Assembly: GCA_023246985.1 (NCBI GenBank)
Contig: JAHFHJ010000001.1
Coordinates: 18,514-45,022 of the forward strand
DNA from: Candidatus Omnitrophota bacterium
GTDB lineage: Bacteria > Omnitrophota > Omnitrophia > Omnitrophales > Aquincolibacteriaceae
Length of the DNA stretch: 26,509 nucleotides
Direction: 5' to 3'
Shown: in pieces, positions 286 to 18,425 of the stretch
Layout of the letters: each line of letters opens with the position of its first letter
Numbering within the stretch: the first letter of the stretch is position 1
Made by a program: the position numbers and the translations under genes
Notes under the pieces: model-generated
Databases searched by the model: none
The model's input: the letters and a program-made list of their open reading frames with translations, nothing else
Told to the model about the DNA's origin: nothing

Positions 286-315
286 TCAAGAGACCCCGCG
301 TTAAAGTGTATCCAC

Positions 316-411: not shown

Positions 412-792
412 ATGGAAAACCTTAAATACAATGCGCAAGGCTTGCTTCCCGCGATTATCCAGGACTCTGAATCCGGAGAGGTTCTGATGCTGGCTTATAT
501 GGACAAGAGAGCCGTCGAACGAACACTCAGGGAAAAACATACGGTTTTTTATTCGAGATCCCGCAATAAATATTGGGTCAAGGGCGAGGAATCAGGCCAC
601 ACGCAGGAGGTGGTTCAGGTCCTTACGGACTGCGATCAAGACACGCTCTTGATCCGCGTCACGCAGAAAAAAGGCGGGGCTTGCCACCTTGGCTACCGGA
701 CCTGTTTTGTCCATGAGATGAACGCCGAGGGAGATATCACCCGCGTCACTCAGAGAAAAGTATTCGACCCGGAAAAAATCTACAAGAAATGA
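412..792 (+). CDS. hisI: Phosphoribosyl-AMP cyclohydrolase
   Basis: GLLPAIIQD, VLMLAYM, YSRSR..WVKGEESGH, DCDQDTLL and GACHLGYRTCF motifs; GGGAG RBS-like sequence upstream. Confidence 0.95.
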   Translation: MENLKYNAQGLLPAIIQDSESGEVLMLAYMDKRAVERTLREKHTVFYSRSRNKYWVKGEESGHTQEVVQVLTDCDQDTLLIRVTQKKGGACHLGYRTCFVHEMNAEGDITRVTQRKVFDPEKIYKK

Positions 793-2294
793 TCACGCCC
801 GACCTCCCGACCTTCAAAAAACTTGCCCGCAAAGGGAACATCGTCGCCCTGTCCGAGACCTTTCCGGCAGATCTTGAAACGCCGGTCTCAAGCTTCCTAA
901 AAATTAGCCCCAAAGCGCGCTGCGCGTTTCTGTTGGAATCCGCGGAGCAGGAAGAAAAGATCGGTCGTTTTTCATTTCTCGGGATCGAACCCGCTGCGAT
1001 CTATGAATCGTCCGGAAAAAATGTTGCCGTGACGGCAAAAGGGAACAAGAAAACCCTGAAGAACACGCGTCTTCTCGATGTGCTCGAAACCGAACTCGCT
1101 ATGCGGTGTCTGGCCAATCCCGAATCGTTCCCGGGATTTCGCGGGGGATTCGTGGGTTATCTCTCCTATGAGAATGTCCAGGATTTCGAGACGATTCGGC
1201 TCTCAAAAAAAAGGGGGACGGGATTTCCGCTCGGCATTTTTTTCCGCGTCGAGGATTTCCTGGTGTTCGACCATTTCCGGAAAACACTTTCGGTTGTCGT
1301 TCTCGTCGACTTGAAAAAATCCCAAAATAGGGCGACTGCTTACCGAAATGCGCTTAAGCAAATGGACAAGTATAAAAACCTCCTCCGCCGTCCCCTGCGT
1401 TTGCCCACAACGAACCGGGACGACTCCAGGCTGCTGGAAAATTCCAGGGAAATTGCCCGGCAACAAAAAGATTACCAAAAAAAGGTCCGGCGAATTAAAG
1501 AATACATCCGCGCCGGCGATTGCATCCAGGTCGTCTTGTCACGGCGTATTAAAGCGGCCTATCACGGGAATGATTTCCAGATCTACCGTTCACTTCGCTC
1601 CAGTAACCCGTCCCCTTATATGTTTTATTTCCGGAGCGGTTCCTTCCGGCTGATCGGATCTTCTCCGGAAATGCTTGTCAAAAAAACAAGACGCCTTGCC
1701 GAAGTGCGACCCATTGCCGGGACGCGACCGCGCGGCGTCACGGAGCAGCAAGACTTGCGATACGAAAAACAGCTCCGCTCCTCCGTCAAGGAGATGGCCG
1801 AGCACTTGATGCTCGTTGATCTCGGCCGGAACGATCTCGGTCGTGTCTCGGATTTCAGGTCGGTCAAGGTCGAACGCTTCGCCTTCGTCGAGCGTTATTC
1901 GCACGTCATGCATCTGGTGAGCCGGGTTCACAGCAAACTCAAGGCGGGAAGATCCGCCATCGATCTTCTGCGCGCGACCTTTCCGGCCGGAACGCTTTCC
2001 GGAGCCCCCAAAGTCCGCGCCATGGAGATCATCGAGGAGCTTGAGCCCGAGGCGCGCGGTCCCTACGGCGGATGTCTCGGTTATTTCGGTTTTGACGGAG
2101 ATATGGATATGTGCATTACGATCCGGACGATCATGTTGAATAAAAATAAAATGTTTTTTCAGGCGGGCGCGGGCATCGTCAAGGATTCGGATCCCCGCCG
2201 TGAATATGCGGAAACCGTCAGCAAGCTTTCGGCCCTTATCAGTATCACCGTCGAAAGGAAAGGCTTTTTCCATCATGCTTCTGGTCATCGATAA
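789..2294 (+). CDS. trpE: Anthranilate synthase component I
   Basis: [59 protein letters not shown] motifs; trp gene context; ATGA overlap with hisI. Confidence 0.92.
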
Positions 2295-2844
2295 CTACGA
2301 TTCCTTTACTTATAACCTTGTGCAATACCTCGGCGAGCTCGGCGCGGATCCGCGCGTCTGGCGCAATGATGAGATCACGATTGCGACGATCAAGCGTCTC
2401 CGGCCCAAACGCATCGTCATTTCTCCGGGACCGCGCACGCCCAAGGAAGCCGGTATTTCCTGCGATGTGATCCAAACCTTCAGCGGAAAGATCCCGATCC
2501 TCGGCGTTTGTCTCGGCCATCAGTCGATCGGTCATGTCTTCGGCGGGAAGGTCATCCGTGCCGCCAATATCATGCACGGTAAAACCTCGAGGATTTATCA
2601 CGACGCGGACCCGATCTTTAAAAACATTCCGAATCCGTTCGTCGCCACGCGCTATCATTCGCTCTTGGTTGAAAAAAAATCCTTGCCGAAGGTGCTCAAA
2701 ATCACGGCCTGGACTCTTTCCCGGGAAATCATGGGCCTCAAACATAAACTCCATCCCACCTGGGGCGTCCAGTTCCACCCGGAATCCATCATGACCGTCT
2801 CCGGCATGCAGCTTCTTAAAAATTTCCTGGATCTTTCCAAGTGA
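2275..2844 (+). CDS. trpG: Anthranilate synthase component II (glutamine amidotransferase)
   Basis: [18 protein letters not shown] start, [28 protein letters not shown]. Start moved from the ORF-track 2200 to ATG 2275, which follows a GAAAGGAAAGG purine tract. Confidence 0.93.
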
Positions 2845-3884
2845 GCAGGATCCCCGGACACAAAGCGCAAAAAGGGTTCGACGAGGTGCTGACCCGGCTC
2901 GCCACGGGGCGATCCTTGTCTGTCGAGGACGCGCGCCGATCCTTCTTACTCCTTTTTAAAGGAGCGCTGTCTTTCGTAAAAGCAAAAAGTTTTCTGCTGC
3001 TGCTCGCCAAGAAAGGGGAGACCGCGGACGAACTCCTCGGCTGCCTCCGGGCGTTTCAGTCCCTTGAAAAGCCCGTCGGTCCCAAGATCCCCGGACTTAT
3101 GGATACCTGCGGCACCGGAGGCGACGGCAGGCATACGATCAATATTTCGACCCTGGTAGCCCTGGTGATCGCCGGTGCGGGCGGCAAGATCGCCAAACAC
3201 GGTAATCGCGCGATCTCGTCCCGTTCCGGAAGTTCGGATCTTATGGAATCCTTCGGCGTCAATCTTGAGGCCTCTACAAAAAAAATGATCGACGCGGTCC
3301 GGCGCCTGGGACTCGGCTATTTTCACGCGCCATTCCACCATCCGGTCTTCGCACGCATACAGTCCCTGCGCCGCGATCTGAGGCGGCGAACCCTCTTGAA
3401 CCTCCTAGGGCCCCTGGTGAACCCGATGCGTCTGGATCATCAGCTGGTGGGAGTTTCGCGCAAAGAACTTGTCCCGCTCTACGCCAAAGTTCTTTCAGAG
3501 CTGGGCCGGAAAACCGCTCTCGTATGCCATAGCGCCGATGGAATGGATGAGATCTCGACCTCGGTCGCGACCACGGCAGCGTGGGTCACCCCGAACAAAA
3601 TACGCATGGCCGTGATTCGGCCTGCGGCGTACGGCCTCCGGAGGGCATCGATCAAGGAACTTTCGATTGATTCGGTTCAAGAAGGCAGGCTCCGGGCCAG
3701 GAACATCCTGACGGGGAAAGAAAAAGGACCCGTGCGCGATACGATCATTCTGAATGCCGCTTTTGGACTTTTGCTGTGCGGTAAAGCCAAGACCGTCCGG
3801 CAGGGGATCACTCTCGCCCAAGCTTCCATCGATTCCGGCCTGGCCCTGGATATCCTCAATCGGCTCAAAACCCGGGCACGCTGA
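2841..3884 (+). CDS. trpD: Anthranilate phosphoribosyltransferase
   Basis: [45 protein letters not shown]; GTGA overlap with trpG. Confidence 0.95.
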
Positions 3885-3885
3885 C

Positions 3886-4698
3886 ATGATCCTGAACGAT
3901 ATGATCCTTCAAAAGCGCAAAGACCTCGAGGAACTCAAGCAGCGCATGCCGCTTCAGCGTCTCCAGCGCATCATCGAAAAAACTGAACGGACCAAGCCCC
4001 GTTCTTTCCGCAATGCCCTTCTATCCGCGAGGCATCTCAACATCATCGCCGAACTCAAGAAAGCTTCGCCTTCGGAGGGCGTGCTGCGCGAAAATTTTCA
4101 GCCTCTTCGGATCGCAAGCCTTTATGAATATGCCGGAGCATGCGCGATTTCGGTCCTCACGGAACCCCATTTCTTCAAAGGCCGCCCCAGCTATCTGAAA
4201 ACCGTCCGCCAGGTGACCCGCCTGCCGCTTCTCAGAAAAGATTTTCTCTTTGAACGTTATCAGCTTTATGAGACCGCGATCCTGGAGGCGGACGCGTTTC
4301 TCCTCATCGCCGCGATCTTGAGCGAGAAAGATTTGAAGGATTTGATCGCGCTTGGAAAAGAGCTCGGCATGGACGCTTTGGTCGAGATTCATTCGGACGC
4401 GGAACTCAAAAAAGCCATCGAGGCCGGCGCCTCGATCGTCGGGATCAATAACCGGGACCTGAAAACCCTGAAAGTCGATCCCGAGCGCGCCCAACATCTG
4501 ATCCCGCATATCCCGAAGGGGACTGTCATCGTGGTCGAAAGCGGCCTCAGCACCCATGAGGAGCTCCTGAGGTACAAAAGTCTTGGGGCGCACGCCTTCC
4601 TGATCGGCTCCGCGCTGATGAAATCCGGGGATATCGTCGCGACCCTTCATAAGCTTCTCGGCAAAAAGGAAGCGGCCGTCGCGGAGGAACCCACATGA
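3886..4698 (+). CDS. trpC: Indole-3-glycerol-phosphate synthase
   Basis: IIAELKKASPSEG, ISVLTEPHFFKG, LLRKDF, VGINNRDL, VVESG. Start set to ATG 3886, 1 nt after the trpD stop. Confidence 0.95.
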   Translation: MILNDMILQKRKDLEELKQRMPLQRLQRIIEKTERTKPRSFRNALLSARHLNIIAELKKASPSEGVLRENFQPLRIASLYEYAGACAISVLTEPHFFKGRPSYLKTVRQVTRLPLLRKDFLFERYQLYETAILEADAFLLIAAILSEKDLKDLIALGKELGMDALVEIHSDAELKKAIEAGASIVGINNRDLKTLKVDPERAQHLIPHIPKGTVIVVESGLSTHEELLRYKSLGAHAFLIGSALMKSGDIVATLHKLLGKKEAAVAEEPT

Positions 4699-5342
4699 CG
4701 CGCGTCAAGATCTGCGGCAACACGAATTATGAGAACGCCCGGCTCGCCGCGGACCTCGGCGCGGACTATCTGGGTTTTATCTTTGTCCCCTCCAGCAAAC
4801 GGGTGGTCACGGTCGAAAAAACGGAGGAGATTCTGGCAAAGCTTCCGGACTTTAAAAACATCGTCGGGATCTTTTGCAATCAGCCCAAAAAGGAAGTCGA
4901 GACGATCGCCGAGCGTCTCGGACTTAAATTCCTTCAATTTCACGGCGAGGAGACCGCGCTTTACTGCGATTCGTTCATGCAAAAGGGCTATGAGATCATC
5001 AAAACTTTTCATGTGAAGGACTCCATGAGCCTGAAACGGATCGGCGAGTACAATGTCAGCGCTTTCCTTTTTGATACTTATTCGCGTTCCGACAAAGGCG
5101 GCAGGGGTATCCCGTTCGACTGGAGCGTTATTGAAGATAAGCCTTATGTCCATGACAAGCTTTTCCTGGCCGGAGGTCTCAATCCGCTCAATGTGACGAA
5201 CGCCATTGAAAAGGTCCGGCCGTTTGCCGTCGATGTCGCAAGCGGCGTCGAATCAAGTCCCGGCGTCAAGGACCCTCAACTCCTTCAGACATTCCTCGAA
5301 AAAGCCAAAAAGACGGTACCCGGTTATGAGCGAAAAACTTGA
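4695..5342 (+). CDS. trpF: Phosphoribosylanthranilate isomerase
   Basis: TRVKICG, LGFIF, LQFHGEE, FLFDT, GG.G..FDW, LAGGLNP, VDVASGVESSPGVKD; ATGA overlap with trpC. Confidence 0.95.
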   Translation: MTRVKICGNTNYENARLAADLGADYLGFIFVPSSKRVVTVEKTEEILAKLPDFKNIVGIFCNQPKKEVETIAERLGLKFLQFHGEETALYCDSFMQKGYEIIKTFHVKDSMSLKRIGEYNVSAFLFDTYSRSDKGGRGIPFDWSVIEDKPYVHDKLFLAGGLNPLNVTNAIEKVRPFAVDVASGVESSPGVKDPQLLQTFLEKAKKTVPGYERKT

Positions 5343-6492
5343 ATTCATCAAAAAACTGAAACCCCGCCTTCTTCGAATCGAAAAGGATTCTCTCTACCTC
5401 AAGCTTTTGGACGCGGTCCAGGAAAATCTTTTGCTCGAGGAGGTCTTTCAGAACCTCGAAGAGGGGGTCGTGATCACGGACGCGAAAGGATATCCGGTTT
5501 TTATCAACCCCAGAGGGGGAGACTGGCTCGGGAGTATCCGCGTCGCCGCAAAGCAGCCGGTTTGGAACCAGATCCCGGATCCCTCGGCCGCCGCGCTTCT
5601 GAGGGAAAATTTTCTCTCCGGCAAAGCACGGTCGGTCTTTGATCTCAAGACGCTGGCCCCGCGGGAGATGCGGATGCGCGTTTCAATCCTGCCCCGCGAT
5701 CTGGGAGACCGAAAACGCTTTGTGATCTTGCTTTCAGACATCACGTCACGCACGGAGCAGGAATTCGAAGCGGCGATGCTTTCGCGCATGGAAAGCCTGG
5801 TTCGTCTGGCCGGCGGAATCGCCCACGAGATCGGCAATCCTCTGAACGCGATCGCGATCCACTTGGAACTTTTTAAGAAACGCCTCGCGGGGTTACCGGA
5901 GGCCAAACGCCGGGAGCTTGCGGATTCTTTGAGCGACATTCAGGATGAAACCCGGCGCCTTGACCGTATTCTCCGGAATTTTCTCAAAGCTACGCGACGG
6001 CCGCCGCTTCGTTTCCGTCTGGACGATCTGAACGAAGTGATCGCCGATGCCCTCTCTTTCCTGAAACCCCAGCTGGATGTTGGAAAGGTCCGCGTGAAAT
6101 TCTCGAAAGACAAAGGGCTTCCGGTATTTCTGATGGACCGGGAACGGCTCTACTACGCTTTTATGAATCTGATTAAAAACGCTCTCGAAGCGATGCCTTT
6201 CGGCGGAACGCTCAAGATCGTAGTCGCTCATAAACAGTCCTGCGCCATTGTGACGGTTACGGACACGGGCTGCGGCATCGACGAAAAAAATATCACCCGG
6301 ATTTTCGATATTTACTACACCACCAAACAGGAAGGCGCGGGGCTTGGACTGATGATGGTCTATGACGCCATCGCCGAGCACGGCGGCAAGATCGAAGTCG
6401 CGAGCAAATTGAACAAGGGGACTACGTTCAATGTTTTGTTGCCGATCCGCGAGCCCCAACTGCAACTGCCCGGCTACCCGGGAAGAGGTTAG
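5326..6492 (+). CDS. Cytoplasmic PAS-type sensor histidine kinase
   Basis: PAS-like LEEGVVITDAKG..FIN, H-box IAHEIGNPLNAI, N-box NLIKNALEA, G1 DTGCGI, G2 GAGLGL; no hydrophobic TM stretch seen. Start set to ATG 5326, overlapping trpF by 17 nt. Confidence 0.92.
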   Translation: MSEKLEFIKKLKPRLLRIEKDSLYLKLLDAVQENLLLEEVFQNLEEGVVITDAKGYPVFINPRGGDWLGSIRVAAKQPVWNQIPDPSAAALLRENFLSGKARSVFDLKTLAPREMRMRVSILPRDLGDRKRFVILLSDITSRTEQEFEAAMLSRMESLVRLAGGIAHEIGNPLNAIAIHLELFKKRLAGLPEAKRRELADSLSDIQDETRRLDRILRNFLKATRRPPLRFRLDDLNEVIADALSFLKPQLDVGKVRVKFSKDKGLPVFLMDRERLYYAFMNLIKNALEAMPFGGTLKIVVAHKQSCAIVTVTDTGCGIDEKNITRIFDIYYTTKQEGAGLGLMMVYDAIAEHGGKIEVASKLNKGTTFNVLLPIREPQLQLPGYPGRG

Positions 6493-6497
6493 ACGTT

Positions 6498-7862
6498 ATG
6501 TTCGAAAGCATCCTGCTCGTTGAAGATGAGGCGAGTTCCCGTAAGGGACTCGCCCAATTTCTCCAAGGCCTGGATTACGATGTCCTGACGGCCATAAACG
6601 GCAGGGAGGCCCTCGGACTTTTCAAAAAAGAAAGTCCTGACCTCGTGATCTCGGATGTCCGGATGCCGGAAATGGACGGGATCGCGCTTTTGGAATCGAT
6701 CAAAGCCGACGCGCCCTCCGCTAAAGTCATCCTGTTGACGGCCTACGGCTCCGTGGAAGACGCGGTCAAAGCCATGAAGAAGGGCGCTTTCTACTATCTG
6801 ACCAAGCCCGTCAATCTTGAAGAGCTTGAATTTCTTGTGAAAAAAGCCTTCAGCAGCCGCCAGTTGGAGGAAGAGAACAAAGAGTTGAAACAGGAACTTT
6901 TCAGGGAGCGCTACGATCAGGGCCAACTGATCGCGCAGTCTCCCCAAATGACGGAGCTGCTTAAAGCCGTCGACAAGATCGCCCCCTCGAACGCCTCGGT
7001 CCTGATCGAAGGAGAAAGCGGCACCGGCAAAGAACTTATCGCTCGACGCATTCACGAACTCAGCCCGAGAAATCAGCATCCTTTTATCGCCGTCCATTGT
7101 GCCGCATTGACTGAGACGCTTCTCTCAAGCGAACTCTTCGGACATGAAAGAGGCGCCTTCACGGGCGCCGCGGACCGGAAAAAGGGGCGCTTTGAGCGCG
7201 CCCATCAAGGCAGCCTTTTTCTGGATGAGATCGGAGAGATCACCAAAGACACGCAGGTCAAACTCCTTCGGGTGCTCCAGGAGGGAGAGTTTGAACGCGT
7301 CGGCGGGACCAAGACGATCAAGGTCGATGTTCGTCTCATCGCCGCAACGAATAAAACATTACTCGATGAAGTGCGGCAGCAAAAGTTCCGCGAAGACCTC
7401 TACTACCGCATCAATGTCATCTACCTGAAAGTCCCGCCGCTCCGGGAACGCAAAGAAGACATCCCGCCGCTCGCGGAGGCTTTTATCCGCCAATATGCCG
7501 CGCTGAACGCAAAGAAAATTCGCGGGATTGAAAAAGACGCGCTGGACGCGCTGGTGCGATACGACTGGCCGGGGAATATCCGCGAGTTCAAAAATATCGT
7601 TGAGCGTATGATCGTTCTGAGTTCCGCGGACATGCTGACGCTGGATCAGATACCCGAAGATATCAGGCAGGAACGCTCCGGGACCCTGCGAACGAACGGC
7701 AGCGCTTCACTCCGGGGCATCACGAAGATCACGGATGCTGAAAAAGAACTGATCCGCAGCGCGCTTCTCGAGACCAAGGGCAACAAATCCACCGCGGCGG
7801 AAAAGCTCGGCATTTCCCGCCGAACGCTTTACCGGAAACTGGAAGAGTATAAACTCGCTTGA
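6498..7862 (+). CDS. Sigma54-dependent response regulator (NtrC/AtoC family)
   Basis: Receiver domain (LLVEDE, SDVRMPEMDG), Walker A GESGTGKE, ELFGHERGAFTGA, FLDEIGE, FREDLYYR, WPGNIRE and a C-terminal Fis-type HTH (AAEKLGISRRTLYRKL). Confidence 0.95.
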   Translation: MFESILLVEDEASSRKGLAQFLQGLDYDVLTAINGREALGLFKKESPDLVISDVRMPEMDGIALLESIKADAPSAKVILLTAYGSVEDAVKAMKKGAFYYLTKPVNLEELEFLVKKAFSSRQLEEENKELKQELFRERYDQGQLIAQSPQMTELLKAVDKIAPSNASVLIEGESGTGKELIARRIHELSPRNQHPFIAVHCAALTETLLSSELFGHERGAFTGAADRKKGRFERAHQGSLFLDEIGEITKDTQVKLLRVLQEGEFERVGGTKTIKVDVRLIAATNKTLLDEVRQQKFREDLYYRINVIYLKVPPLRERKEDIPPLAEAFIRQYAALNAKKIRGIEKDALDALVRYDWPGNIREFKNIVERMIVLSSADMLTLDQIPEDIRQERSGTLRTNGSASLRGITKITDAEKELIRSALLETKGNKSTAAEKLGISRRTLYRKLEEYKLA

Positions 7863-7948
7863 TTCTTAATGCCGTTTTGTTACAACCCATCGCGCCATAA
7901 TGTCTCATACATATATCCTTGTTTTACAAGCAAAAATTTTGAACGCTA

Positions 7949-7961
7949 TAACTCATTGAAA
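7949..7961 (+). promoter_or_regulatory. Candidate IHF binding site
   Basis: TAACTCATTGAAA matches YAANNNNTTGATW with one mismatch, in an AT-rich tract between the candidate enhancer and the -24/-12 element. Confidence 0.4.
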
Positions 7962-7997
7962 TTGCTATGGTTATGATTTTTAATTTTTATATGTTTT

Positions 7998-8012
7998 TGG
8001 CATGTTAATTGA
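7998..8012 (+). promoter_or_regulatory. Candidate sigma54 -24/-12 promoter upstream of dnaK
   Basis: TGGCATG-TTAA-TTGA versus consensus TGGCACG-N4-TTGC. GG (7999) to G (8011) spacing is correct; the -12 dinucleotide is GA rather than GC. Confidence 0.5.
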
Positions 8013-8065
8013 GATAGAAGAAGTAGCATTGAAGTCATTAGCGAAAAGAGAGAGGAGAGTATTCC

Positions 8066-9991
8066 ATGGGAAAGATTTTAGGCATTGATTTAGGAACAAC
8101 CAATTCATGCATGTCGATCATCGAAGGGTCGGACCCCAAGGTGATCGAAAATAAGGAAGGGAACCGCACCACTCCTTCCGTCGTCGCATTCACCAAAACC
8201 GGCGAGCAGCTGGTGGGACAAACCGCGAAGCGCCAGTCCGTCACGAACCCGGAGAACACGATCTTCAGCGCCAAGCGTTTCATCGGCCGGCGTTTTGAGG
8301 AGGCGGGACATGAGGTTCAGATGGTTCCTTTCAAGGTGAAAGCCGGCAAGCACGGCGAGGCGGTCTTCAACATCCCGCAGGAAAAACGGGATTATACGCC
8401 GCCGGAGATCTCCGCCAAGGTCCTCCAGAAACTCAAAGCTGACGCGGAAACTTATCTCGGGGAAAAGATCACCCAGGCCGTGATCACGGTGCCTGCGTAT
8501 TTCAACGATTCCCAGCGCCAGGCCACCAAGGATGCCGGGCAGATCGCGGGGCTCGAAGTCCTGCGTATCATCAACGAACCGACCGCGGCCGCGTTGGCCT
8601 ACGGCCTCGACAAGAAAAAAGACGAAACCATCGCGGTTTACGACCTCGGCGGAGGGACCTTCGATATCTCGATCCTTGAGATCGGAGAAGGCGTTTTCGA
8701 AGTGAAAGCCACGAACGGCGATACGCATTTGGGCGGCGATGACTTCGACCAGAAGATCATTGATTGGCTGATCGCGGAATTCAAAAAAACCGAAGGCATC
8801 GACCTCAGCAAAGACCGCATGGCTATTCAACGTCTCAAAGAAGCCGCGGAAAAGGCCAAGTGCGAACTGTCCACGGCGCAAAGCACGGAGATCAATCTTC
8901 CGTTCATCACGGCGGACGCCTCCGGCCCGAAACATCTGCTTCTGACCCTTTCCCGGGCTAAACTCGAGCAACTCGTGAACGAGCTGATCGAACGCACCGT
9001 CGGCCCTTGCTTGCAGGCCATGAAGGATACCGGCGTGAAACCCGAAGACATCGATGAGGTGATCCTTGTGGGCGGCATGACCCGCATGCCGGCCGTCGTG
9101 CAGAAGGCGAAGGATCTTTTCAAAAAAGTCCCGCACCAGGGCGTCAACCCGGATGAGGTCGTGGCGGTCGGCGCCGCGATCCAGGGCGGAGTCTTGAAAG
9201 GAGACGTGAAAGACATTCTCCTTTTGGATGTGACCCCGCTTTCGCTCGGCATCGAGACCTTGGGCGGTATCATGACCAAATTGATCGAGCGTAACACCAC
9301 GATCCCGACCCGGAAATCCGAAATCTTTTCGACCGCCGCGGACAATCAAACCGCGGTGACCGTGAAAGCGCTTCAGGGAGAGCGGGAAATGGCCGCGCAT
9401 AACCGGGTGCTCGGGCTCTTCAATCTGGAGGGAATTCCGCCCGCGTCGCGCGGCGTACCGCAGATCGAGGTGAGCTTTGACATCGACGCGAACGGCATTG
9501 TTCACGTCTCAGCTAAGGATCTCGGAACGGGCAAGGAGCAGAAGATCCGCATCGAATCTTCTTCCGGGCTTTCCAAAGACGAGGTGGAGAAGCTTGTCAA
9601 GGAAGGGCAGGTTCACGCGGAAGAGGACAGAAAACAACACGAAGTCGTCACGGCGCGCAACCAGCTCGACAATCTCATCTATGGGACCGAAAAGACCCTG
9701 AAAGAACACGGCGATAAGGTCACGGAAGACGAGAAAAAGAAAGTCGAGGAGGCCTTGAAAGAAGCCAAGGCCTTGCTCACGAGCGAATCCAAGGAAGAGC
9801 TGGAAAAAGCCAGCCAGAAACTCGCGACCGCGTCGCATACGATCGCGCAGAAGATGTATGAAGAGGCCGCCAAAAAGGCCGGAAATAAGGCGGGGGCGGT
9901 CCCGGATTCCGGCGGCAAGAAGGACGACGGTGTCGTCGATGCCGACTACGAAGTCGTCGACGAGGAAGAAAAGAAAAAAAAGAAGGAATAA
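8066..9991 (+). CDS. dnaK: Molecular chaperone DnaK (Hsp70)
   Basis: [73 protein letters not shown] tail; GGAG RBS upstream. Confidence 0.99.
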
Positions 9992-9999
9992 CAAATTCA

Positions 10000-10052
10000 G
10001 GGAACGGGAAACGTTGGGCGTTTAACGCCGGCGTTTTCCGTTTTACGTTTTA
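10000..10052 (+). terminator. Hairpin downstream of dnaK (possible intrinsic terminator) built of 7-nt units
   Basis: AACGGGAAACG (10003-13) pairs with CGTTTTCCGTT (10032-42), inner GGCG/CGCC with a TTTAA loop; followed by broken T runs. Confidence 0.45.
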
Positions 10053-10080
10053 CGGCGCCGCCAAAGCCAAAGAAGAACTG

Positions 10081-10953
10081 ATGCCTTACCGTACGAAATG
10101 GTTTTTGTTGTGCTTGATCTTGATGTTGGGTTTGCCTGGGCCTTGGGCCCTGGCTGTTCCACGCCTCAAGATCGATCCGCCCGTCAAAAAGATCCCGCTC
10201 GACCAACTCGCGATCCTGAAAATCCGACTCGAGTGGCCGCAAGACGAAGGACCGTATGAAATAAATTCCCGGGAGCCCATGCTCGAGAACCTGACCCTCG
10301 AAAAACAAAATCAGTCCCAGGAAACCGGCGCCGCCGTCCGTCATACCCTCACTTATGAGTTCCGTCCTGTCAAAAAAGGAGCGGCTGTCATTGATCCTTT
10401 TGAAGTCAGCTACCGGAAATCCGAGACAGAACCGTGGATCCCCCTCATGATCCCGGAACAAAATATGACGGTTGTTTCAAGCTGGCCGTTAAGATCGATC
10501 CTGATCGGGTTATTGATTGCGGCGGGATTTTTAGCGTTGATTTTGACGGGCTTCAAAGTGCGGACCACCCTGGCGGCTCGTAACGCCGCGAGAAATAGGC
10601 CCCCCCCGGATCCCAAACAAAGAATTTATGCGAAGGCGGAAGAATCGATTGCGACATTCGTCTCGCCGGATCCCAAAGAAAAACTAATTCACTGGTCGAA
10701 TCTGCTCCGGACCGTGGTCGTGACCTACTATGACATCTCCGATGGGAAAACGACTCTTGCCGAGGTCCTTTCACGCCTCCGATCGAAGGGCCTTTTGGCG
10801 GGGGAGTGGAACGAGGTCTCGCGTCTTTTTGAACAGCTTTCCGAGATGCAATTTTCCAGGCAGGACATTCCGGCCCATGCGCTTGAGCAACTCCAAAAGA
10901 CCCTCTTGCAATATGTAAGAGGCAAGATTATCATTGGCAACTTGAACGCTTGA
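10081..10953 (+). CDS. Secreted/membrane-anchored protein with BatD-like Ig-type N-terminal domain
   Basis: N-terminal signal peptide, beta-rich domain (TLTYEFRPVKKGAAVIDPFEVSY), one TM helix (ILIGLLIAAGFLALIL), helical cytoplasmic C-terminus; directly upstream of moxR. Family call is by pattern only. Confidence 0.55.
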   Translation: MPYRTKWFLLCLILMLGLPGPWALAVPRLKIDPPVKKIPLDQLAILKIRLEWPQDEGPYEINSREPMLENLTLEKQNQSQETGAAVRHTLTYEFRPVKKGAAVIDPFEVSYRKSETEPWIPLMIPEQNMTVVSSWPLRSILIGLLIAAGFLALILTGFKVRTTLAARNAARNRPPPDPKQRIYAKAEESIATFVSPDPKEKLIHWSNLLRTVVVTYYDISDGKTTLAEVLSRLRSKGLLAGEWNEVSRLFEQLSEMQFSRQDIPAHALEQLQKTLLQYVRGKIIIGNLNA

Positions 10954-11081
10954 TCATTTCCACCCCGTGAGAGACTTAAATATTTTGGGTGGATTGTGTT
11001 GTATTAAGTATTTATTCCTATAACTATGAAACGCGCCGCTGGGGTTCACACGATCTCTAACGGGGCAAGAAGGAGAACTCT

Positions 11082-12071
11082 ATGGACAGTTCGATCCAGG
11101 AAGTCAACGCCAAGATCCGTGAAGCCAACGCCTCGATCAAAGATCTCACCCGCGAGATCGGGAAGGTCATTGTCGGTCAACAATATCTCGTGGACCGGCT
11201 CCTCATGGCTCTTTTGGCCGACGGACACATCTTGATCGAAGGGGTTCCAGGCCTTGCCAAGACCCTTTCCGTACGGACCCTCTCCCAGGCCATTGATGCC
11301 CAATTCCAGCGCATCCAGTTTACTCCGGACCTCCTCCCGGCCGATGTGGTCGGAACCTTGGTCTATAACCCCAAAGACGGCCATTTTTCAACTAAAAAGG
11401 GCCCTATTTTTACCAATATCATCCTGGCGGATGAGATCAACCGGGCTCCTTCCAAGGTCCAAAGCGCGCTCCTGGAGGCCATGCAGGAACGCCAGGTCAC
11501 GATCGGCAATGAGACCTTCCCGCTGCCGGTCCCATTTCTCGTCCTTGCGACCCAAAATCCGATCGAACAAGAGGGAACTTATCCGCTGCCTGAAGCCCAG
11601 GTCGACCGTTTCATGCTGAAATTAGTCGTTAACTATCCCAGCAAAAAGGAAGAGAAAGAGATCCTGGAGCGCATGGCAACCGGCAAAATGATCCAAGTGA
11701 CGCCGGTTATGAACATTCACCAGATCATGGCCCTTCGAAAACTGCTGCACGAGATTTATATTGATGAAAAGGTGAAGGATTATATTCTCGATCTCGTATT
11801 CGCGACGCGCAATCCTCAGGATTACAAACTTCCGGACCTGAAGCCCCTAATTTCGTATGGCGCTTCGCCGCGCGCGAGCATCATGTTGACCCTGGCGGCC
11901 AAAGCACACGCCTTTCTCCAGGGACGCGGCTATGTCACTCCGGATGACGTCAAACAGATCGGATCGGACGTCCTGCGGCATCGCGTTCTTGTGACCTACG
12001 AAGCGGAAGCCGAGGACATCACCACCGACGATATCGTCAAAAAAATCTTCGATCAGGTCGAAGTCCCATAA
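11082..12071 (+). CDS. moxR: MoxR-family AAA+ ATPase
   Basis: HILIEGVPGLAKT (Walker A), RIQFTPDLLPAD, LADEINRAPSKVQSALLEAMQE, TQNPIEQEGTYPLPEAQVDRF, YGASPRAS; AAGGAG RBS. Confidence 0.96.
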   Translation: MDSSIQEVNAKIREANASIKDLTREIGKVIVGQQYLVDRLLMALLADGHILIEGVPGLAKTLSVRTLSQAIDAQFQRIQFTPDLLPADVVGTLVYNPKDGHFSTKKGPIFTNIILADEINRAPSKVQSALLEAMQERQVTIGNETFPLPVPFLVLATQNPIEQEGTYPLPEAQVDRFMLKLVVNYPSKKEEKEILERMATGKMIQVTPVMNIHQIMALRKLLHEIYIDEKVKDYILDLVFATRNPQDYKLPDLKPLISYGASPRASIMLTLAAKAHAFLQGRGYVTPDDVKQIGSDVLRHRVLVTYEAEAEDITTDDIVKKIFDQVEVP

Positions 12072-12094
12072 TTCTCAAGACCCATCACCCAAAG

Positions 12095-12124
12095 TTTGTC
12101 CGATAAGATCATCGGACGGACAAA
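12095..12124. repeat. Small hairpin with duplicated GGAC in the 3' arm
   Basis: GTCCGAT (12098-104) / ATCGGAC (12111-17) 7-bp stem with a 6-nt loop; TTTGTCC (12095-101) can alternatively pair with GGACAAA (12118-24). Confidence 0.5.
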
Positions 12125-12134
12125 GCTGATTTAA

Positions 12135-12269
12135 AAATAACCAAGATCCAATGACGAAGATCCCAATAATGATCAATCATCCAAATCAAATAACCCGACT
12201 GTTTTCCGACGATGGGTTATTGGATGTGGAATTTGTTTGATCATTGGTTCTTGGTTATTTAATCTTGGG
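12135..12269. repeat. Long imperfect inverted repeat with 7-nt periodicity
   Basis: 12135-12154 and 12241-12260 are reverse complements at 19/20 positions; inner AATAACCC (12189-96) pairs with GGGTTATT (12214-21). Confidence 0.8.
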
Positions 12270-12295
12270 TATTCCTAATAGAAGGTTCCCTGAAA

Positions 12296-13177
12296 ATGAT
12301 CCCCGCAGCGCTCCTTAAAAAAGTCCGAAAGATCGAGATCCGCACGACCCATCTGGTCAATGATCTTTTCGGCGGGGAATACGAATCCGTCTTCAAGGGA
12401 CAGGGCATCGAATTCGCGGATGTTCGGGAATATGTCCCGGGGGATGATATCCGTACCATTGACTGGAATGTGACGGCGCGTTCGCTTCATCCTTTCGTTA
12501 AAAAATTCGTCGAGACCCGCGAGCTCACAGTCCTCTTTGCGGTCGACATGTCCGGCTCGCAATATTTCGGATCCGCCGATAAACTCAAATCCGAGATCGC
12601 GGCCGAAATCACTGCCATCCTTGCCTTTTCTGCCGTCAAGAATAACGACAAAACCGGACTCCTCATCGCCACCGAAGGCGTCGAGAAATTCATCCCGGTC
12701 AAAAAGGGAAGGAACCACGCCCTCCGTGTTATTCGCGAGATCCTCGGATATCAGCCCCGGAAGAAGAAAACCATGCTTTCCGGAGCCCTGGAATATCTCT
12801 ACCGGATTCAGACGCGAACCTCGGTTATTTTTCTGATCTCGGACTTCATGGACGAAGGCTATGAAAAAGCCCTGAAGATCCTGAGCCGAAAACACGATGT
12901 CATCGCGATCTATCTTCGGGATGCTCTCGAGCGGCAGTTCCCAAAGGTGGGACTTGTGGAACTGGTCGACCGCGAAAACGGCGACACCTTGCTCGTCGAC
13001 ACGGCCTCGCCCCTGTTTCACAAGCGCTTTCGACAAATGGCGGATGCGCGACAAGCTTCTCTCGAAAAACTCTTCAAACGCCTTCAGATCGACTGTATTG
13101 AGATCCCGGCCGACACCTCCTATATCGAGCCGCTTTTCAGATTTTTTAAAAGCCGGGAGCGGGAGCGCAGGCGCTGA
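12296..13177 (+). CDS. DUF58 domain (vWA-like) protein, MoxR partner
   Basis: FKGQGIEFADVREYVPGDDIRTIDWNVTAR, FVETREL, VDMSGSQYFG, FLISDF. Confidence 0.93.
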   Translation: MIPAALLKKVRKIEIRTTHLVNDLFGGEYESVFKGQGIEFADVREYVPGDDIRTIDWNVTARSLHPFVKKFVETRELTVLFAVDMSGSQYFGSADKLKSEIAAEITAILAFSAVKNNDKTGLLIATEGVEKFIPVKKGRNHALRVIREILGYQPRKKKTMLSGALEYLYRIQTRTSVIFLISDFMDEGYEKALKILSRKHDVIAIYLRDALERQFPKVGLVELVDRENGDTLLVDTASPLFHKRFRQMADARQASLEKLFKRLQIDCIEIPADTSYIEPLFRFFKSRERERRR

Positions 13178-14175
13178 TGATACGTTCACGAAAGGGGATA
13201 AGCGGATTTTCCGCCGTAATACGGCGGACGGATCTGTCCTCTCTCATCATCCTTACCGTTGCTTTTCTCATGACGGCCGGCACGCTTCGCGCAGCAGAGG
13301 ACGCTATCAAGGTCACGGCCGAAGTGGATAAGGCATTCCTCACGATTGGAGACCCCGTCACGTACACGGTCACCGTCGAGCACGCGCCTGACATCCAGAT
13401 CCTTTCCAATATTCCGGCTCCGGACTCCGATATCCTCGAGATCAAAAAAGTCGAGGACCTTAACAAAAAAGGAAAAAAGACCATCCTTTCAGGGAAAAAA
13501 TTTATTCTCACGACCTACCGGCTCGGCGAGTTCATTCTCGGGCCCGTCACGATCCAATATCGCAAAGAAGGTCTACCGATCAAGAGCCTTCAGACGAACA
13601 AGCTTTACCTGACCGTCAAAAGCGTCGCGGAAGGCGAGTCCCAGGAAGACATTCGCGATGTAAAAAAAGTGGTCCCGTTCAAATGGCGCATGGGAAAATT
13701 CCTTTGGACGCTCCTTACGCTCGCGCTTTTGACGGCGGGTTATTTTCTCTTTCGATTTTTACGCGGTCAAAAGATCGCCCTGGTGCCCTCGGCACCGCCT
13801 TTGACGCCCGAGGAAGAGGCGCTTCTGCATTTGGGCGAACTCTATGAATCCGATCTTCTGAAACGCGGACTCATCAAGGCGTACTACCTGCGCCTCTCCG
13901 AGATCCTGAGGGTCTATTTCGAAAAACGCTACGGGATTCTTGCCGTGGAATCGACCACGTTCGAGATCCTGCGCGCGCTGAAACCTCAGCATCCGGATAG
14001 CGCGCTTTATCAGAAAATCCAATATGTTCTCGAGGCCGCGGACCTCGCAAAATTTGCCAAGTGGGTCCCGACCGCGCCCGAGGTTCTCCATCTCAACAAA
14101 AAATCCGAAGAGATCGTCAAGGAATCAGCGCCTCTTCCGGAACAAGCCCTCACGGAGACGCCTCATGGTGTTTAG
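13177..14175 (+). CDS. BatD-like N-terminal domain / DUF4381-type membrane protein of Bat operons
   Basis: Signal/TM segment, TAEVDKAFLTIGDPVTYTVTV, IRDVK, TM helix, YYLRLSEILRVYFEKRYG...ESTTFEIL, ADLAKFAK; TGATG overlap with DUF58. Confidence 0.75.
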   Translation: MIRSRKGISGFSAVIRRTDLSSLIILTVAFLMTAGTLRAAEDAIKVTAEVDKAFLTIGDPVTYTVTVEHAPDIQILSNIPAPDSDILEIKKVEDLNKKGKKTILSGKKFILTTYRLGEFILGPVTIQYRKEGLPIKSLQTNKLYLTVKSVAEGESQEDIRDVKKVVPFKWRMGKFLWTLLTLALLTAGYFLFRFLRGQKIALVPSAPPLTPEEEALLHLGELYESDLLKRGLIKAYYLRLSEILRVYFEKRYGILAVESTTFEILRALKPQHPDSALYQKIQYVLEAADLAKFAKWVPTAPEVLHLNKKSEEIVKESAPLPEQALTETPHGV

Positions 14176-15145
14176 GCATCCGGCATTCTTCCTGCTTCTG
14201 CTTCTGTTGCCCTTTGTTTTTAGGGGGTCCTGGCGCCGCGAAAAACTGGAATTCGCATTTTCTTCTTTGCAACTCCTCAAAGACCGGCCCGCGACCTCCC
14301 GAATGTTCTTTTTCAGGTTGTTGCCGGTCCTGCGCTTCGTCATGTTGGTGCTCCTCATTGCCGCGCTGGCCAGACCCTCGAACGTCTCGAGCGACAAGGA
14401 ATACCAGACCCACGGCGTCGATATCGTGATCGCTCTCGATATCTCGGGTTCCATGCTCGCCGAGGATTTTCAGCCGGAGAACCGCGTCTTCGTCGCCAAA
14501 CAGGAGGCCATCAAATTCATCAAAGGACGCGAAAATGACCGCGTCGGCCTTGTGGTGTTCTCCCAAAAAGCGTTCACGCAGTGCCCGCTCACGCTTGATT
14601 ACCGGATCCTTGTGGAACTTCTTTCCGAGATTCGGGTCGGTATGATCGCCGACGGTACCGCCATTGGCATGGGCATCGCGACCGCGGTGAACCGCCTCCG
14701 GGACAGCGACGCGAAAAGCAAGGTCATCATCCTGATCACGGACGGGGAGAACAACGCCGGGAATATTGACCCGGTCACGGCGGCAGAACTTGCCAAAAGT
14801 TTTGGCATCAAGATCTACACGATCGGCGTCGGACGGGGGGGGATGGTCCCGTTCCCGATCGATGACCCGCTTTTCGGCAAGCGCTATGTCCAGGCAAATG
14901 TGGAGGTCGATGAAACGACCCTGAAGCGCATCGCGGATATCACCGGCGGTCTTTTTTTCCGGGCCCGCGATCCCGCGGCGCTTTCTGAAATTTACGAACG
15001 GATCAACAAGCTCGAAAAGAGTGAGGTCAAGGTCAAAGAATACCGCAGCTTCAACGAACTCTTCCCGATCTTTTTGATCCCGGCGCTCCTCCTCCTGCTC
15101 CTGGATATTCTTTTGCGCCGGACCCTCCTGATGAAGGTGCCCTGA
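14165..15145 (+). CDS. batA: vWA-domain membrane protein BatA
   Basis: MVFRHPAFFLLLLLLP start, ALARP, DIVIALDISGSM (MIDAS), DRVGLVVF, GTAIGMG, ILITDGENNAG, VKEY, C-terminal TM. Start set to ATG 14165. Confidence 0.9.
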   Translation: MVFRHPAFFLLLLLLPFVFRGSWRREKLEFAFSSLQLLKDRPATSRMFFFRLLPVLRFVMLVLLIAALARPSNVSSDKEYQTHGVDIVIALDISGSMLAEDFQPENRVFVAKQEAIKFIKGRENDRVGLVVFSQKAFTQCPLTLDYRILVELLSEIRVGMIADGTAIGMGIATAVNRLRDSDAKSKVIILITDGENNAGNIDPVTAAELAKSFGIKIYTIGVGRGGMVPFPIDDPLFGKRYVQANVEVDETTLKRIADITGGLFFRARDPAALSEIYERINKLEKSEVKVKEYRSFNELFPIFLIPALLLLLLDILLRRTLLMKVP

Positions 15146-17148
15146 TGCAATTCTTCAAACCCGAATATTTTCTTTATCTCTGGCTGGTTCCGGCGGTTTT
15201 CGCACTTTTTATTTTCTCGCGCAAGCTTTGGAAAAAACGCCTGCGCCGCCTGGTCCGGGACGAAACGCTTCTCGCGAAATTGATCGAGGGATATCGTCAA
15301 GGCGAGTGGATGCTTCGCGCGGTTCTGACAACGCTCGCGGTACTTTGTTTTGTAGGGGCGCTTGCCCGGCCGCAATGGGGCGATGAAAAACGAAGCGTCC
15401 AGCGTAAGGGCGCGGACATTATTTTCCTGGTGGATACCTCACTCAGTATGCTGGCTGAAGACATCAAGCCCAGCCGCCTCGGCAAAGCCAAGTTCGAGAT
15501 CGAGACCTTTATCCGGAATCTCCGCGGAGACCGCGTCGGCATGGTCGCCTTTGCGGGCTCGGGATTCCTCCAGACGCCCCTGACCCTCGATCATGCGGCA
15601 TTTCTCCTGTTTCTGGATGCCGTTCAGGTCGGATTTCTTCCGGACCCGGGGACCTCACTCGTCCAAGCCATCCATTTGGCGATTAAGGCGTTCCCTCAGA
15701 AAGAACTCAAATATAAGGCCTTGATCCTCTTTACGGACGGGGAAGACCATGAAGGAGGCATTGAGAGGGCTATTGAGGAGGCCCAACAGGCTCATGTGCG
15801 CCTCTACGCCCTGGGACTGGGAACGGCGGAAGGGGAGCCCATTCCCCTCAAGAACGAGAAAGGGGAGCGCCAAGGCTTCAAAAAGGACCGTAGCGGGCAA
15901 ATGGTGCTCACCAAACTCAATCAGCCCCTCCTGGAACGGCTAGCCAGGGAAACGGGGGGCCTCTACCTTCCCGCCACGCCCGGTGAAAAAGAGGTCGAGG
16001 TCATCCTCAAACATCTCCGCGGATGGGGCGAGCAAAAGTTTGAAGAAAAAATGATTGTGGAGCGGGAAGACCAATACCAGGTATTCCTGATCCTTGCGTT
16101 GATCCTCCTTATCGCTGAAATGCTGATCCGGAGGAAAAACAAAAAGAATCCCGCGCTCCTGGCCTGTCTCGCGTCTTTTTTTCTTTTCACGGGATTCTTT
16201 GAGACCTCACAGGACACGATCAAAAAGGGCAACGACCATTTCCAGAACAAGCGCTACCAGTCGGCGCTAGAAAACTATCGCAAGGTCCAAATCAAAAACC
16301 CGGACGCCCCGGAAGTGCTTTACAATCTCGGAACCGCGCTTTACAAGGTCGATTCTTTCCAGGAATCAGCCCAAGACCTCGATCATGCGGCCGCCAAGGC
16401 CGAAGACCCGCGGCTGAAGGCTCGCGCGCTTTATAACTTCGGCAATACCCAGTACCGCCTCGGGAATTTTGAACAAGCCATCGACTCCTATAAAAAAGTC
16501 CTGGCGATCGATCCCACCGATAAGGATTCCAAATACAACCTGGAGTTCCTCCAGAAGCAGAAAAATAAATTTGAGAAAAAAGACCAAGACCGGAAAAAAG
16601 AAGACCCAAAAAAAGATTCACGGCAAAACCAGCAAAAGAACCGACAGGATCAACAGCCGCAACAAGGTCAAGGCCGGCAAGACCAGAAAAATCAAGGCCA
16701 GGGTCAGCAAGATAAGCAAGATCAGAAAGACACGCAACAAAAGCTCTCGCCGAGCCAGAGTCAGCCGCAAGATCAAAAGGATCAGAGGGAGCAACAGCAA
16801 AACCAACAGCAACAGAATCAGGAACAAGGCGAGCAGGATCAGAAGAATAAAGAACAACAGCAAAAAGACCAGGCGCAAAAAGAAAGAGAAGAACAGCAAC
16901 AACGCGCGCAGGAGCAGAAAGACCAGGAAAGAAAGGATCAGGATGAGCAACAGCGGCAGCAGCAAGATCAGCAAAAAAGTGATTCGGAGAAGCGGCAGGG
17001 GCAAGCGAAACAGCCTCTCCAGGGTCAGATGAGCATGGATAACGCCCTAAACCTTCTGGATGCCCTCAAGGAATCCGAAAAAGAGCTCCAGGACCTTCGC
17101 CGTCCGCCGGTCAATAAGAACCCGCCTCCGGTGGATAAGGACTGGTAA
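15145..17148 (+). CDS. BatB (vWA) - BatC (TPR, Gln-rich) fusion protein
   Basis: ALARPQWG, DIIFLVDTSLSM, DRVGMVAFAG, LFTDGEDH, TM helix, then TPRs (YNLGTALYK, YNFGNTQYRLG, DSKYNLE), about 150-aa Q/K/D/E-rich tract and a LLDALKESE...KDW C-terminus; one uninterrupted frame. Confidence 0.88.
   Translation: MQFFKPEYFLYLWLVPAVFALFIFSRKLWKKRLRRLVRDETLLAKLIEGYRQGEWMLRAVLTTLAVLCFVGALARPQWGDEKRSVQRKGADIIFLVDTSLSMLAEDIKPSRLGKAKFEIETFIRNLRGDRVGMVAFAGSGFLQTPLTLDHAAFLLFLDAVQVGFLPDPGTSLVQAIHLAIKAFPQKELKYKALILFTDGEDHEGGIERAIEEAQQAHVRLYALGLGTAEGEPIPLKNEKGERQGFKKDRSGQMVLTKLNQPLLERLARETGGLYLPATPGEKEVEVILKHLRGWGEQKFEEKMIVEREDQYQVFLILALILLIAEMLIRRKNKKNPALLACLASFFLFTGFFETSQDTIKKGNDHFQNKRYQSALENYRKVQIKNPDAPEVLYNLGTALYKVDSFQESAQDLDHAAAKAEDPRLKARALYNFGNTQYRLGNFEQAIDSYKKVLAIDPTDKDSKYNLEFLQKQKNKFEKKDQDRKKEDPKKDSRQNQQKNRQDQQPQQGQGRQDQKNQGQGQQDKQDQKDTQQKLSPSQSQPQDQKDQREQQQNQQQQNQEQGEQDQKNKEQQQKDQAQKEREEQQQRAQEQKDQERKDQDEQQRQQQDQQKSDSEKRQGQAKQPLQGQMSMDNALNLLDALKESEKELQDLRRPPVNKNPPPVDKDW
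16561..17025 (+). repeat. Low-complexity Gln/Lys/Asp/Glu-rich coding tract (QDQK-type units)
   Basis: Recurrent CAAGATCAGAAAGA / CAGGATCAGAAGAA / AAAGACCAG-like units; strongly purine- and A-rich on the + strand. Confidence 0.8.
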
Positions 17149-17178
17149 AAAAAATCACCTTACCGAGGGAGAATATTT

Positions 17179-17625
17179 ATGAGCCTCATGGAGCAAATCG
17201 AAAAGGATGTTATCGCCGCGATGAAGTCCAAAGATATTGTCAAACTCTCAACGCTCAGGATGCTCAAAAGCGCCGTCGTGAACTATCTGATCCATGCTAA
17301 AAAGGACAAGGCGGATGATCCGGAGGTCCTCGGCATGGTGGCCAAACAGGCCAAACAGCGCCGGGAGAGTCTTGAAATCTTTGAAAAGGCCGGTCGCAAG
17401 GACCTGGCGGATCAAGAGAAGGCCGAGCTCGCGATCCTGGAGGATTATCTTCCTAGGCAACTGACGGATGAAGAACTGAGGGTGGAAGTCCGAAATGCTA
17501 TTAGAATATCGGGCGCCGCCGGCCCATCGGACATGGGAAAGCTTATAAAAATCCTCATGCCAGCCATCCAGGGAAAAGCCGACGGCAAGCGCGTCCAGGA
17601 AGCTGTCAAGACCCTTCTGAAATAG
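17179..17625 (+). CDS. yqeY: GatB/YqeY domain protein
   Basis: MSLMEQIEKDVIAAMK, TLRMLKSA, KQRRESLEIFEKAGRKDLADQEKAEL.ILEDYLP.QL, DMGKLIK, GKADGK; GGGAG RBS. Confidence 0.92.
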   Translation: MSLMEQIEKDVIAAMKSKDIVKLSTLRMLKSAVVNYLIHAKKDKADDPEVLGMVAKQAKQRRESLEIFEKAGRKDLADQEKAELAILEDYLPRQLTDEELRVEVRNAIRISGAAGPSDMGKLIKILMPAIQGKADGKRVQEAVKTLLK

Positions 17626-17676
17626 TTTCAAGCGACATCCCGAAGAAACATCCTAGGGGCCCCGTCTCTCTACGCT

Positions 17677-17704
17677 ACTTTACATAAGATATATTATAGG
17701 TCGT
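17677..17704 (-). other. dif: XerC/XerD dif-like recombination site
   Basis: Minus strand reads ACGACCTATAA-TATATC-TTATGTAAAGT: 11-6-11 architecture with a TTATGTAAA XerD-type arm and the inner ATAA/TTAT inverted pair; located between convergent gene blocks. Confidence 0.8.
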
Positions 17705-17921
17705 ATTCGCGCCATGTCCTCCCTACGCAGAGGTTGTCATTCTTGAGCTACCGTCCTTTTGCTTCCCGGGAACGGAAACTCTTTAGCGATGCCGCGACGT
17801 CGATCAAAGCCCCTTCCAGATAAAGCGCTCCCGTAAGACAGGCTTCGCGGACGTAGCATTTCTCTACAAGAAATGTACTTAATGAGAGGCTATCAGCCTG
17901 TAACAAAAGCTTCGAAATTAG

Positions 17922-18425
17922 CTACTCGTTGCCTTTTTCACGCGGCCGCGGGAGAAGATCGGTTTTGAGGCAGGTCACATGATCGATAAAAAGAACGCCG
18001 TTCAAATGATCCACTTCATGCTCCACGCAGATTGCTTCGATCCCAGTGCTGACCTTTTCATGGAATTCGCCTTGCGTGTCCTGCCACCTGAAACGCACCC
18101 ACCGGTGGCGTTTCAGGAACGCCGTATAATCCGGAAGGCTCATACACCCCTCTTTGCGCGTTTCCGGTTCCCTCGTTTCAAGGATCACGGGGTTGACGAG
18201 AATGAGACGCTCCGCTTGGGGTTCGCGTTTGGAAACATCCACGATGGCAACGGCCCTGGCCGTCCCGATCTGCGGCGCCGCGATGCCGATCCCGCGCGGC
18301 TGGCTTTTCATAACGCGCACTAACGCGGCCACAAGTTTCAAAAGCGAACGGTCGAATACCGTGACCCTCTGCGCTTTTTTCCTGAGAATCGGGTTCGGAA
18401 AGATCCTAAGAGACGCGGGGTTCAT
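17922..18425 (-). CDS. def: Peptide deformylase
   Basis: All three PDF motifs present: GIGIAAPQIG, EGCMS, HEVDHLNG. Confidence 0.96.
   Translation of the reverse strand: MNPASLRIFPNPILRKKAQRVTVFDRSLLKLVAALVRVMKSQPRGIGIAAPQIGTARAVAIVDVSKREPQAERLILVNPVILETREPETRKEGCMSLPDYTAFLKRHRWVRFRWQDTQGEFHEKVSTGIEAICVEHEVDHLNGVLFIDHVTCLKTDLLPRPREKGNE

Follow-up and report, generated by a model that had tools for sequence, protein, structure and literature searches.

A 28-bp Site Between yqeY and def Is Very Probably the Chromosomal dif of an Omnitrophota Bacterium

Gene Context of the Site

The window analyzed here is a stretch of 26,509 nucleotides (G000:C110:18514-45022) on a 50.8-kb contig, C110, of an Omnitrophota MAG. 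The assembly consists of 185 contigs totaling 1.497 Mb, has a GC content of 53% and is 82.5% complete. Within the window, a block of plus-strand genes ends with yqeY and a block of minus-strand genes ends with def, which encodes peptide deformylase. The two genes are convergent and are separated by a non-coding gap of 296 bp (17626-17921). Inside this gap the minus strand, read from 17704 to 17677, is ACGACCTATAA TATATC TTATGTAAAGT. The sequence and position of this 28-bp site, with its 11-6-11 layout in a non-coding gap, are as the earlier note had read them. The features of the locus are as follows.

17179-17625, plus strand: yqeY (Pfam YqeY, E = 8.3e-46), which ends the plus-strand block, on the XerD-arm flank
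17665-17672, minus strand: purine-rich motif TAGAGAGA, 4 nt past the XerD arm and possibly outside dif
17677-17704, minus strand: predicted dif site, 28 bp (XerC arm, 6-bp center and XerD arm), based on identity to Bacillus subtilis dif, uniqueness and conservation
17677-17687, minus strand: presumed XerD-binding arm, TTATGTAAAGT, matching B. subtilis dif at 10/11 and Escherichia coli dif at 9/11 positions and nearly invariant in relatives
17688-17693, minus strand: predicted central strand-exchange region TATATC, 6 bp between the arms
17694-17704, minus strand: presumed XerC-binding arm, ACGACCTATAA, based on alignment to E. coli and B. subtilis dif
17922-18425, minus strand: def (Pfam Pep_deformylase, E = 3.1e-42), which ends the minus-strand block, on the XerC-arm flank

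Upstream of the site, the plus strand also carries VWA and VWA-TPR genes of the Bat-operon type. Downstream, the minus strand carries an ACT-domain gene, an AsmA-family gene, an SNase-domain gene and the gene for the CCA-adding enzyme. The genes around the site are chromosomal housekeeping genes. A search of the whole window against Rfam families returned no matches.

Based on crude ORF calls, C110 has 27 plus-strand and two minus-strand genes to the left of the site, and no plus-strand and 14 minus-strand genes to its right. The gap is therefore the point at which gene orientation switches on this contig, as the earlier note had stated. Complete Omnitrophota genomes have two replichores, as defined by GC skew, and almost all genes of a given replichore are on one strand (West-Roberts et al., 2023, bioRxiv 10.1101/2023.11.21.568195). 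Given this organization, the terminus is expected to appear as a large convergent switch. Several other contigs of the assembly also have local strand switches in the crude gene calls, so we treat the switch as supportive of a terminus and not as diagnostic when taken alone.

Similarity to Known dif Sites and Copy Number

For dif of E. coli and of B. subtilis, the sequences behind the original comparison are identical to the published ones (Kono et al., 2011; PMC3025954), and recomputation of the alignments returned the same values. The 28-mer is identical to the experimentally defined B. subtilis dif at 23/28 positions (8/11 in the XerC arm, 5/6 in the center and 10/11 in the XerD arm) and to E. 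coli dif at 18/28 positions (5/11, 4/6, and 9/11, respectively), with the XerD arm matching best. All 28 positions agree with the dif consensus. The site also contains the inner dyad ATAA...TTAT, and we read four of the six inner pairs as complementary, as they are in B. subtilis dif. By sequence, the site is closest to the Firmicutes-type dif.

Within the window, there is no second match to the 28-mer at ≤3 mismatches, and 100 dinucleotide shuffles of the window also gave none. The genome-wide copy search that the earlier note had proposed found the 28-mer once in the 1.497-Mb assembly, where it is unique at ≤7 mismatches to itself. Moreover, with B. subtilis dif as the query, no other position of the assembly matches at ≤8 mismatches. 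A single copy per chromosome is thus what this assembly, at 82.5% completeness, contains.

We found no published dif site for Omnitrophota in the literature searched, and two Omnitrophota genome papers, one of which is West-Roberts et al. (2023), make no mention of Xer or dif. The available part of Kono et al. (2011; PMC3025954) describes computational prediction of dif in 16 phyla; Omnitrophota is not among the phyla named in that part, which also states that prediction failed for the related Planctomycetes.

Conservation of the Site in Relatives and Across the Phylum

At ≤3 mismatches, the site was detected in 17 of 41 genomes (this genome included), and the relatives that have it represent at least six families of the order. 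A search of the same 41 genomes with the reversed pattern gave no matches. When the loci of the relatives are aligned on the site, there is almost no variation within the 28 bp, and the 60 nt on each side are unalignable. The check for conservation in relatives that the earlier note had recommended therefore came out in its favor, with the site kept and the flanks diverged. Among the relatives, the XerC arm is the more variable of the two arms and the XerD arm is nearly invariant; the central region is TGTATC, TATATC or TGTATG. The consensus of the site in the genus is ACGTCCTATAATGTATCTTATGTAAAGT, which has T at position 4 of the XerC arm, where the genome studied here has A. Three high-quality genomes of the same genus without a match at 3 mismatches (G010, G014, and G004) have the site when the pattern is slightly relaxed.

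Each of the 17 genomes has one copy of the site, with the exception of G029, which has two (G029:C81:148-175 and G029:C84:29-56; loci L018 and L020). Both are located at contig ends and their flanks are near-identical. They most likely represent a strain variant, or a duplicated assembly of one locus, rather than two dif sites.

In the Omnitrophota as a whole, a relaxed 24-nt form of the site (≤2 mismatches) was detected in 164 of 196 high-quality genomes, nearly always once, and the reversed control for this form gave 9 matches across 201 genomes. The exact 24-nt core was found in several Omnitrophota MAGs and also in Acidimicrobiales, Atribacterota, Coriobacteriia, Phycisphaerae and other groups, so the motif is not lineage-specific. 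This spread fits the wide conservation of dif described by Kono et al. (2011; PMC3025954). In their predicted sites, too, conservation is higher in the XerD arm than in the XerC arm, and in this respect the dif of the lineage studied here resembles them.

The genes next to the site were compared as well. On the XerD-arm side, yqeY and/or the VWA-TPR gene are syntenic in all of the relatives' loci but one. Adjacency of def and dif was found in G014, which is from the same genus, and in G036 and G038, which are from other families, and the order def-dif-yqeY occurs in G014 and G038. The G036 locus shares genes with the window on both flanks (g25232-CCA-ACT-def and, on the opposite side, the VWA genes), and it retains the site without an adjacent yqeY homolog. 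In G010, a minus-strand ORF of 148 aa directly follows the site, in the position and with the length of yqeY in other members of the genus. As adjacency of def and dif or shared flanks also occur in G014, G036, and G038, we consider the arrangement in the window to be ancestral.

The synteny with yqeY, which holds in most relatives, together with retention of the adjoining purine-rich motif within the genus, could also be taken to mark a signal for transcription (the -10 element of a promoter, or the terminator region at the 3′ end of yqeY) that resembles dif by coincidence. A sigma-70-like sequence, AGGACA-16-TATAAT (10/12), does overlap the site on the minus strand. However, its -35 part is located in the unconserved flank, only yqeY in antisense and no gene lies downstream on that strand, and the one match compares with 0.6 ± 0.8 expected from shuffles. 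Further, the site is kept in G036, where it has no adjacent yqeY, and across the phylum, and every one of its 28 positions follows the dif consensus. Coincidental likeness of a transcription signal to dif is, in our view, extremely improbable. We rejected the promoter given its single match at chance level, its unconserved -35 and the lack of a following gene. No terminator-like hairpin was found in the region 17400-18100.

Members of the genus (loci L004-L014) have TAGGGAGAG or TAGAGGGAGAG at a distance of 4-5 nt past the XerD arm, in the position of the purine-rich motif, and weaker forms occur in two other lineages. In several relatives there is a copy related to this motif, or an inverted one, to the left of the XerC arm. 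The motif by the XerD arm may reflect shared descent, a signal at the 3′ end of yqeY or an accessory element. The first two are possible because the XerD-arm side is syntenic, with the 3′ end of yqeY there.

Position of the Site Relative to the Replication Terminus

Across the site, the GC skew of C110 drops from -0.015 to -0.068 and the AT skew from +0.077 to -0.037. Both shifts are in the direction expected at a terminus. The GC skew of this contig does not change sign, and its cumulative maximum is located elsewhere than at the site. Skew on the contig itself was insufficient alone, and long contigs of relatives were examined.

G036:C43, other family: GC skew +0.088 over 60 kb to the left and -0.065 over 54 kb to the right, with the change in a 5-kb bin beginning 14 bp before the site
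G030:C2, other family: GC skew +0.045 over 100 kb to the left and -0.078 over 89 kb to the right, with the cumulative maximum 1.1 kb from the site
G010:C2, same genus: GC skew +0.086 over 67 kb to the left and -0.075 over 133 kb to the right, with the cumulative maximum 8 kb from the site

In G030:C2, gene orientation also switches at the site, with almost all genes to its left on the plus strand and almost all to its right on the minus strand. The skew results from these relatives carry over to the locus in the window because G036 (on both flanks) and G010 (on the XerD-arm side, of the yqeY type) share genes with it. The expectation that dif would be found at the skew maximum is borne out in G036, G030, and G010, in which the site is at or near the sign change, and only indirectly in the genome studied here, whose own contig has a drop alone.

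Elsewhere in the assembly (contig G000:C177:1-33418), dnaA (7065-7547, minus strand) is located at a divergent switch in gene orientation. The GC skew of C177 goes from about -0.07 to positive values, with the cumulative minimum near 10.8 kb. The dnaA region of C177 is likely the replication origin of this genome. With a dif site and the dnaA on C177, contigs could be assigned to replichores, and the ordering of scaffolds would be helped. More generally, Omnitrophota are known almost entirely from fragmented MAGs, in which the site would reliably mark the terminus.

In the genus, the XerD-arm side of dif has 30-40 kb with almost no GC skew and with marked AT skew (window positions 1-17625, and G009, G010, and G016). 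On the presumed leading strand, the GC skew of this region is about -0.03 to +0.015, and it is normal farther from dif.

Recombination Machinery

We identified a gene for XerC (C147:5287-6234, 316 aa) that adjoins topA and scores 359.9 bits against TIGR02224, for which the cut-off is 335.15. It is the sole tyrosine recombinase found in the assembly. Searches with Pfam, NCBIfam and tblastn did not find a XerD gene in this assembly, which is 82.5% complete. Among genomes of the same genus, 19 of 19 encode a XerD that is distinct from XerC and scores about 370-380 bits to the XerD model; the G001 copy, for example, has 377 bits to XerD and is below the XerC cut-off. Given the presence of this type in 19/19 genomes, we presume that XerD of the genome studied here is encoded in its unassembled part (17%), and its absence most likely reflects incompleteness of the assembly. 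At this level of completeness, the absence is weak counter-evidence. A check for xerC and xerD had been proposed in the earlier note, and the part of it concerning xerC was confirmed, with a gamma-domain FtsK in addition; xerD was found in the genus-mates and is missing here.

Overall, one or more Xer-type matches were obtained in 40 of the 41 genomes searched, a set that includes the present one, and the relatives typically have two Xer genes, one of the XerD type and one that is the ortholog of the C147 XerC. In G007, which is 76% complete, there is a single match, with the same XerC-type score and frame length as the gene on C147.

With a single Xer gene in this assembly, the site could be the target of one recombinase, XerC alone, rather than of a XerC/XerD pair, comparable to XerH/difH or XerS/difSL. 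Those two systems and the archaeal XerA/dif use one recombinase and differently built sites. The site described here would be like theirs in function and in its location at the terminus, and it differs from them in that its lineage has two Xer paralogs and a canonical XerCD-type site. Against a single recombinase stand the two distinct Xer genes of most genomes searched, one scoring best as XerD and the other as XerC, the asymmetric arms that are typical of XerCD dif, with the XerD arm strongly conserved, and the 82.5% completeness of the assembly. As genus-mates carry two Xer paralogs, we judge a single-recombinase system to have almost no likelihood.

The DNA translocase is encoded on C137 by one open frame of 822 aa with matches to FtsK_SpoIIIE (218.7 bits) and FtsK_gamma (97.4 bits). 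In the pooled flanks of dif (652 kb), the KOPS-like sequence GGGNAGGG occurs 54 times pointing toward dif and 4 times pointing away, with composition-matched controls already 82% toward. All arrangements of 6G+1A+1N, when pooled, have a ratio of 1724:381 (82% toward dif), and several are as skewed as GGGNAGGG. The most skewed 8-mers in these flanks are A-rich words of the coding strand, and on C110 itself the ratio for GGGNAGGG is only 2:1.

Identity of the Site and Proposed Mechanism

In combination, the sequence match, the uniqueness of the site, its footprint across the phylum, the convergence of genes on it, the skew inversion at the site in relatives, and the presence of XerC and a gamma-domain FtsK lead us to conclude that the 28-mer is, with high probability, the chromosomal dif of this Omnitrophota bacterium and of the canonical XerC/XerD type. 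This agrees with the chromosomal dimer-resolution site proposed in the earlier note.

The B. subtilis dif works with CodV/RipX, which correspond to XerC/XerD, and with SpoIIIE/SftA. The Omnitrophota site shares with it the 28-bp 11-6-11 layout, 23 of 28 positions, the inner dyad and occurrence as a single copy, probably near the terminus. It differs by five substitutions (positions 3, 4, 9, 17, and 27), and also in its host, a Gram-negative-type Omnitrophota bacterium in which AsmA and a Kdo-transferase gene are present. Unlike the SpoIIIE/SftA of B. subtilis, the translocase here is one FtsK with a gamma domain. In its components, the system is like that of E. coli (dif/XerC-XerD/FtsK): the lineage has XerC, XerD (in genus-mates) and an FtsK with the gamma domain, the XerD arm matches at 9/11 positions, and the site is probably at a replichore junction. 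The similarity to E. coli dif is lower for the site overall (18/28) and for its XerC arm (5/11).

Taking the steps from established XerCD/FtsK biology, we infer the assignment of the arms, the order of strand exchange and the dependence on FtsK as follows, with XerD presumably supplied from the unassembled part of the genome. XerC would bind the left, variable arm ACGACCTATAA, and XerD the right, conserved arm TTATGTAAAGT. Once sister chromosomes have been fused into a dimer by homologous recombination, FtsK bound at the septum would pump DNA until the two dif copies meet. The gamma domain of FtsK would then activate XerD, which would lead to exchange of the first pair of strands across the 6-bp center TATATC. 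Finally, XerC would resolve the Holliday junction and release monomers.

The results point to a canonical XerCD/FtsK dimer-resolution system, with a site near the Firmicutes-type consensus, that is present across the Omnitrophota genomes sampled. Sites of this kind are known or predicted in most bacterial phyla. The Omnitrophota dif behaves as expected of dif, which is unsurprising and raises no new question.

Rearrangement of the XerC-Arm Flank and Giant Genes

Within the genus, the flank on the side of the XerC arm varies. The def cluster is on another contig in four genomes (G009, G010, G016, and G019), two of which have a giant ORF in its place on this flank (at least 16,795 aa in G009 and at least 21,902 aa in G010). 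Such variation might suggest that the site is of the Xer type and not for dimer resolution, i.e., that it is the relic attachment site of an IMEX or the boundary of a pdif-like module. Integration of an IMEX normally leaves two dif-like sites. However, the site is single-copy here and in nearly all relatives, the housekeeping genes that flank it are syntenic with those of distant families, and in relatives the skew inversions coincide with it. Downstream of def in the four genomes in which the def cluster is on another contig, we found no dif-like sequence (≤9 mismatches) and no arm half-site. As a second site was found nowhere, neither in the assembly nor beside def in the rearranged relatives, a pair of the IMEX or pdif type is largely refuted, and we consider it very improbable that the site is of this type. 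No evidence was found for use of the site by mobile elements. The earlier note had also seen in the site a potential landing pad for Xer-exploiting elements; this did not hold up, given the absence of a second dif-like site and of a scar by def in the rearranged relatives.

The def-ACT-AsmA-CCA block is located away from dif, with co-oriented genes after it, on G010:C12, G009:C3, G016:C17, and G019:C24 (loci L189-L192). G010 seems to have gained at least about 106 kb between def and dif. As def is by dif in the genome studied here and in G014, G036, and G038, and is not in the four genus-mates, the XerC-arm flank appears to be a hot spot of rearrangement or insertion. It is unlikely, with only a slim chance of being right, that very large insertions, among them the giant-gene loci of Omnitrophota, preferentially enter on the XerC-arm side of dif in this genus, possibly through Xer-mediated (IMEX-like) integration.

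The giant open frame of G010 (G010:C2:3-65708; loci L176-L179) is cut by the start of the contig and ends 1.2 kb from dif, and that of G009 (G009:C59:40103-90487; loci L031-L033) ends 9.6 kb from dif. Both are on the XerC-arm side and point toward dif. West-Roberts et al. (2023, bioRxiv 10.1101/2023.11.21.568195) reported that the giant genes of their three complete Omnitrophota genomes are separated from the origin by about 100 kb, and the terminus-adjacent frames of G009 and G010 differ from this placement. In the genome studied here, each of three contigs (G000:C62, 21.5 kb; C85, 20.1 kb; C21, 10.4 kb) is taken up by a very long open frame or by two of them. Based on these, this genome probably also has one or more giant genes, fragmented over contigs.
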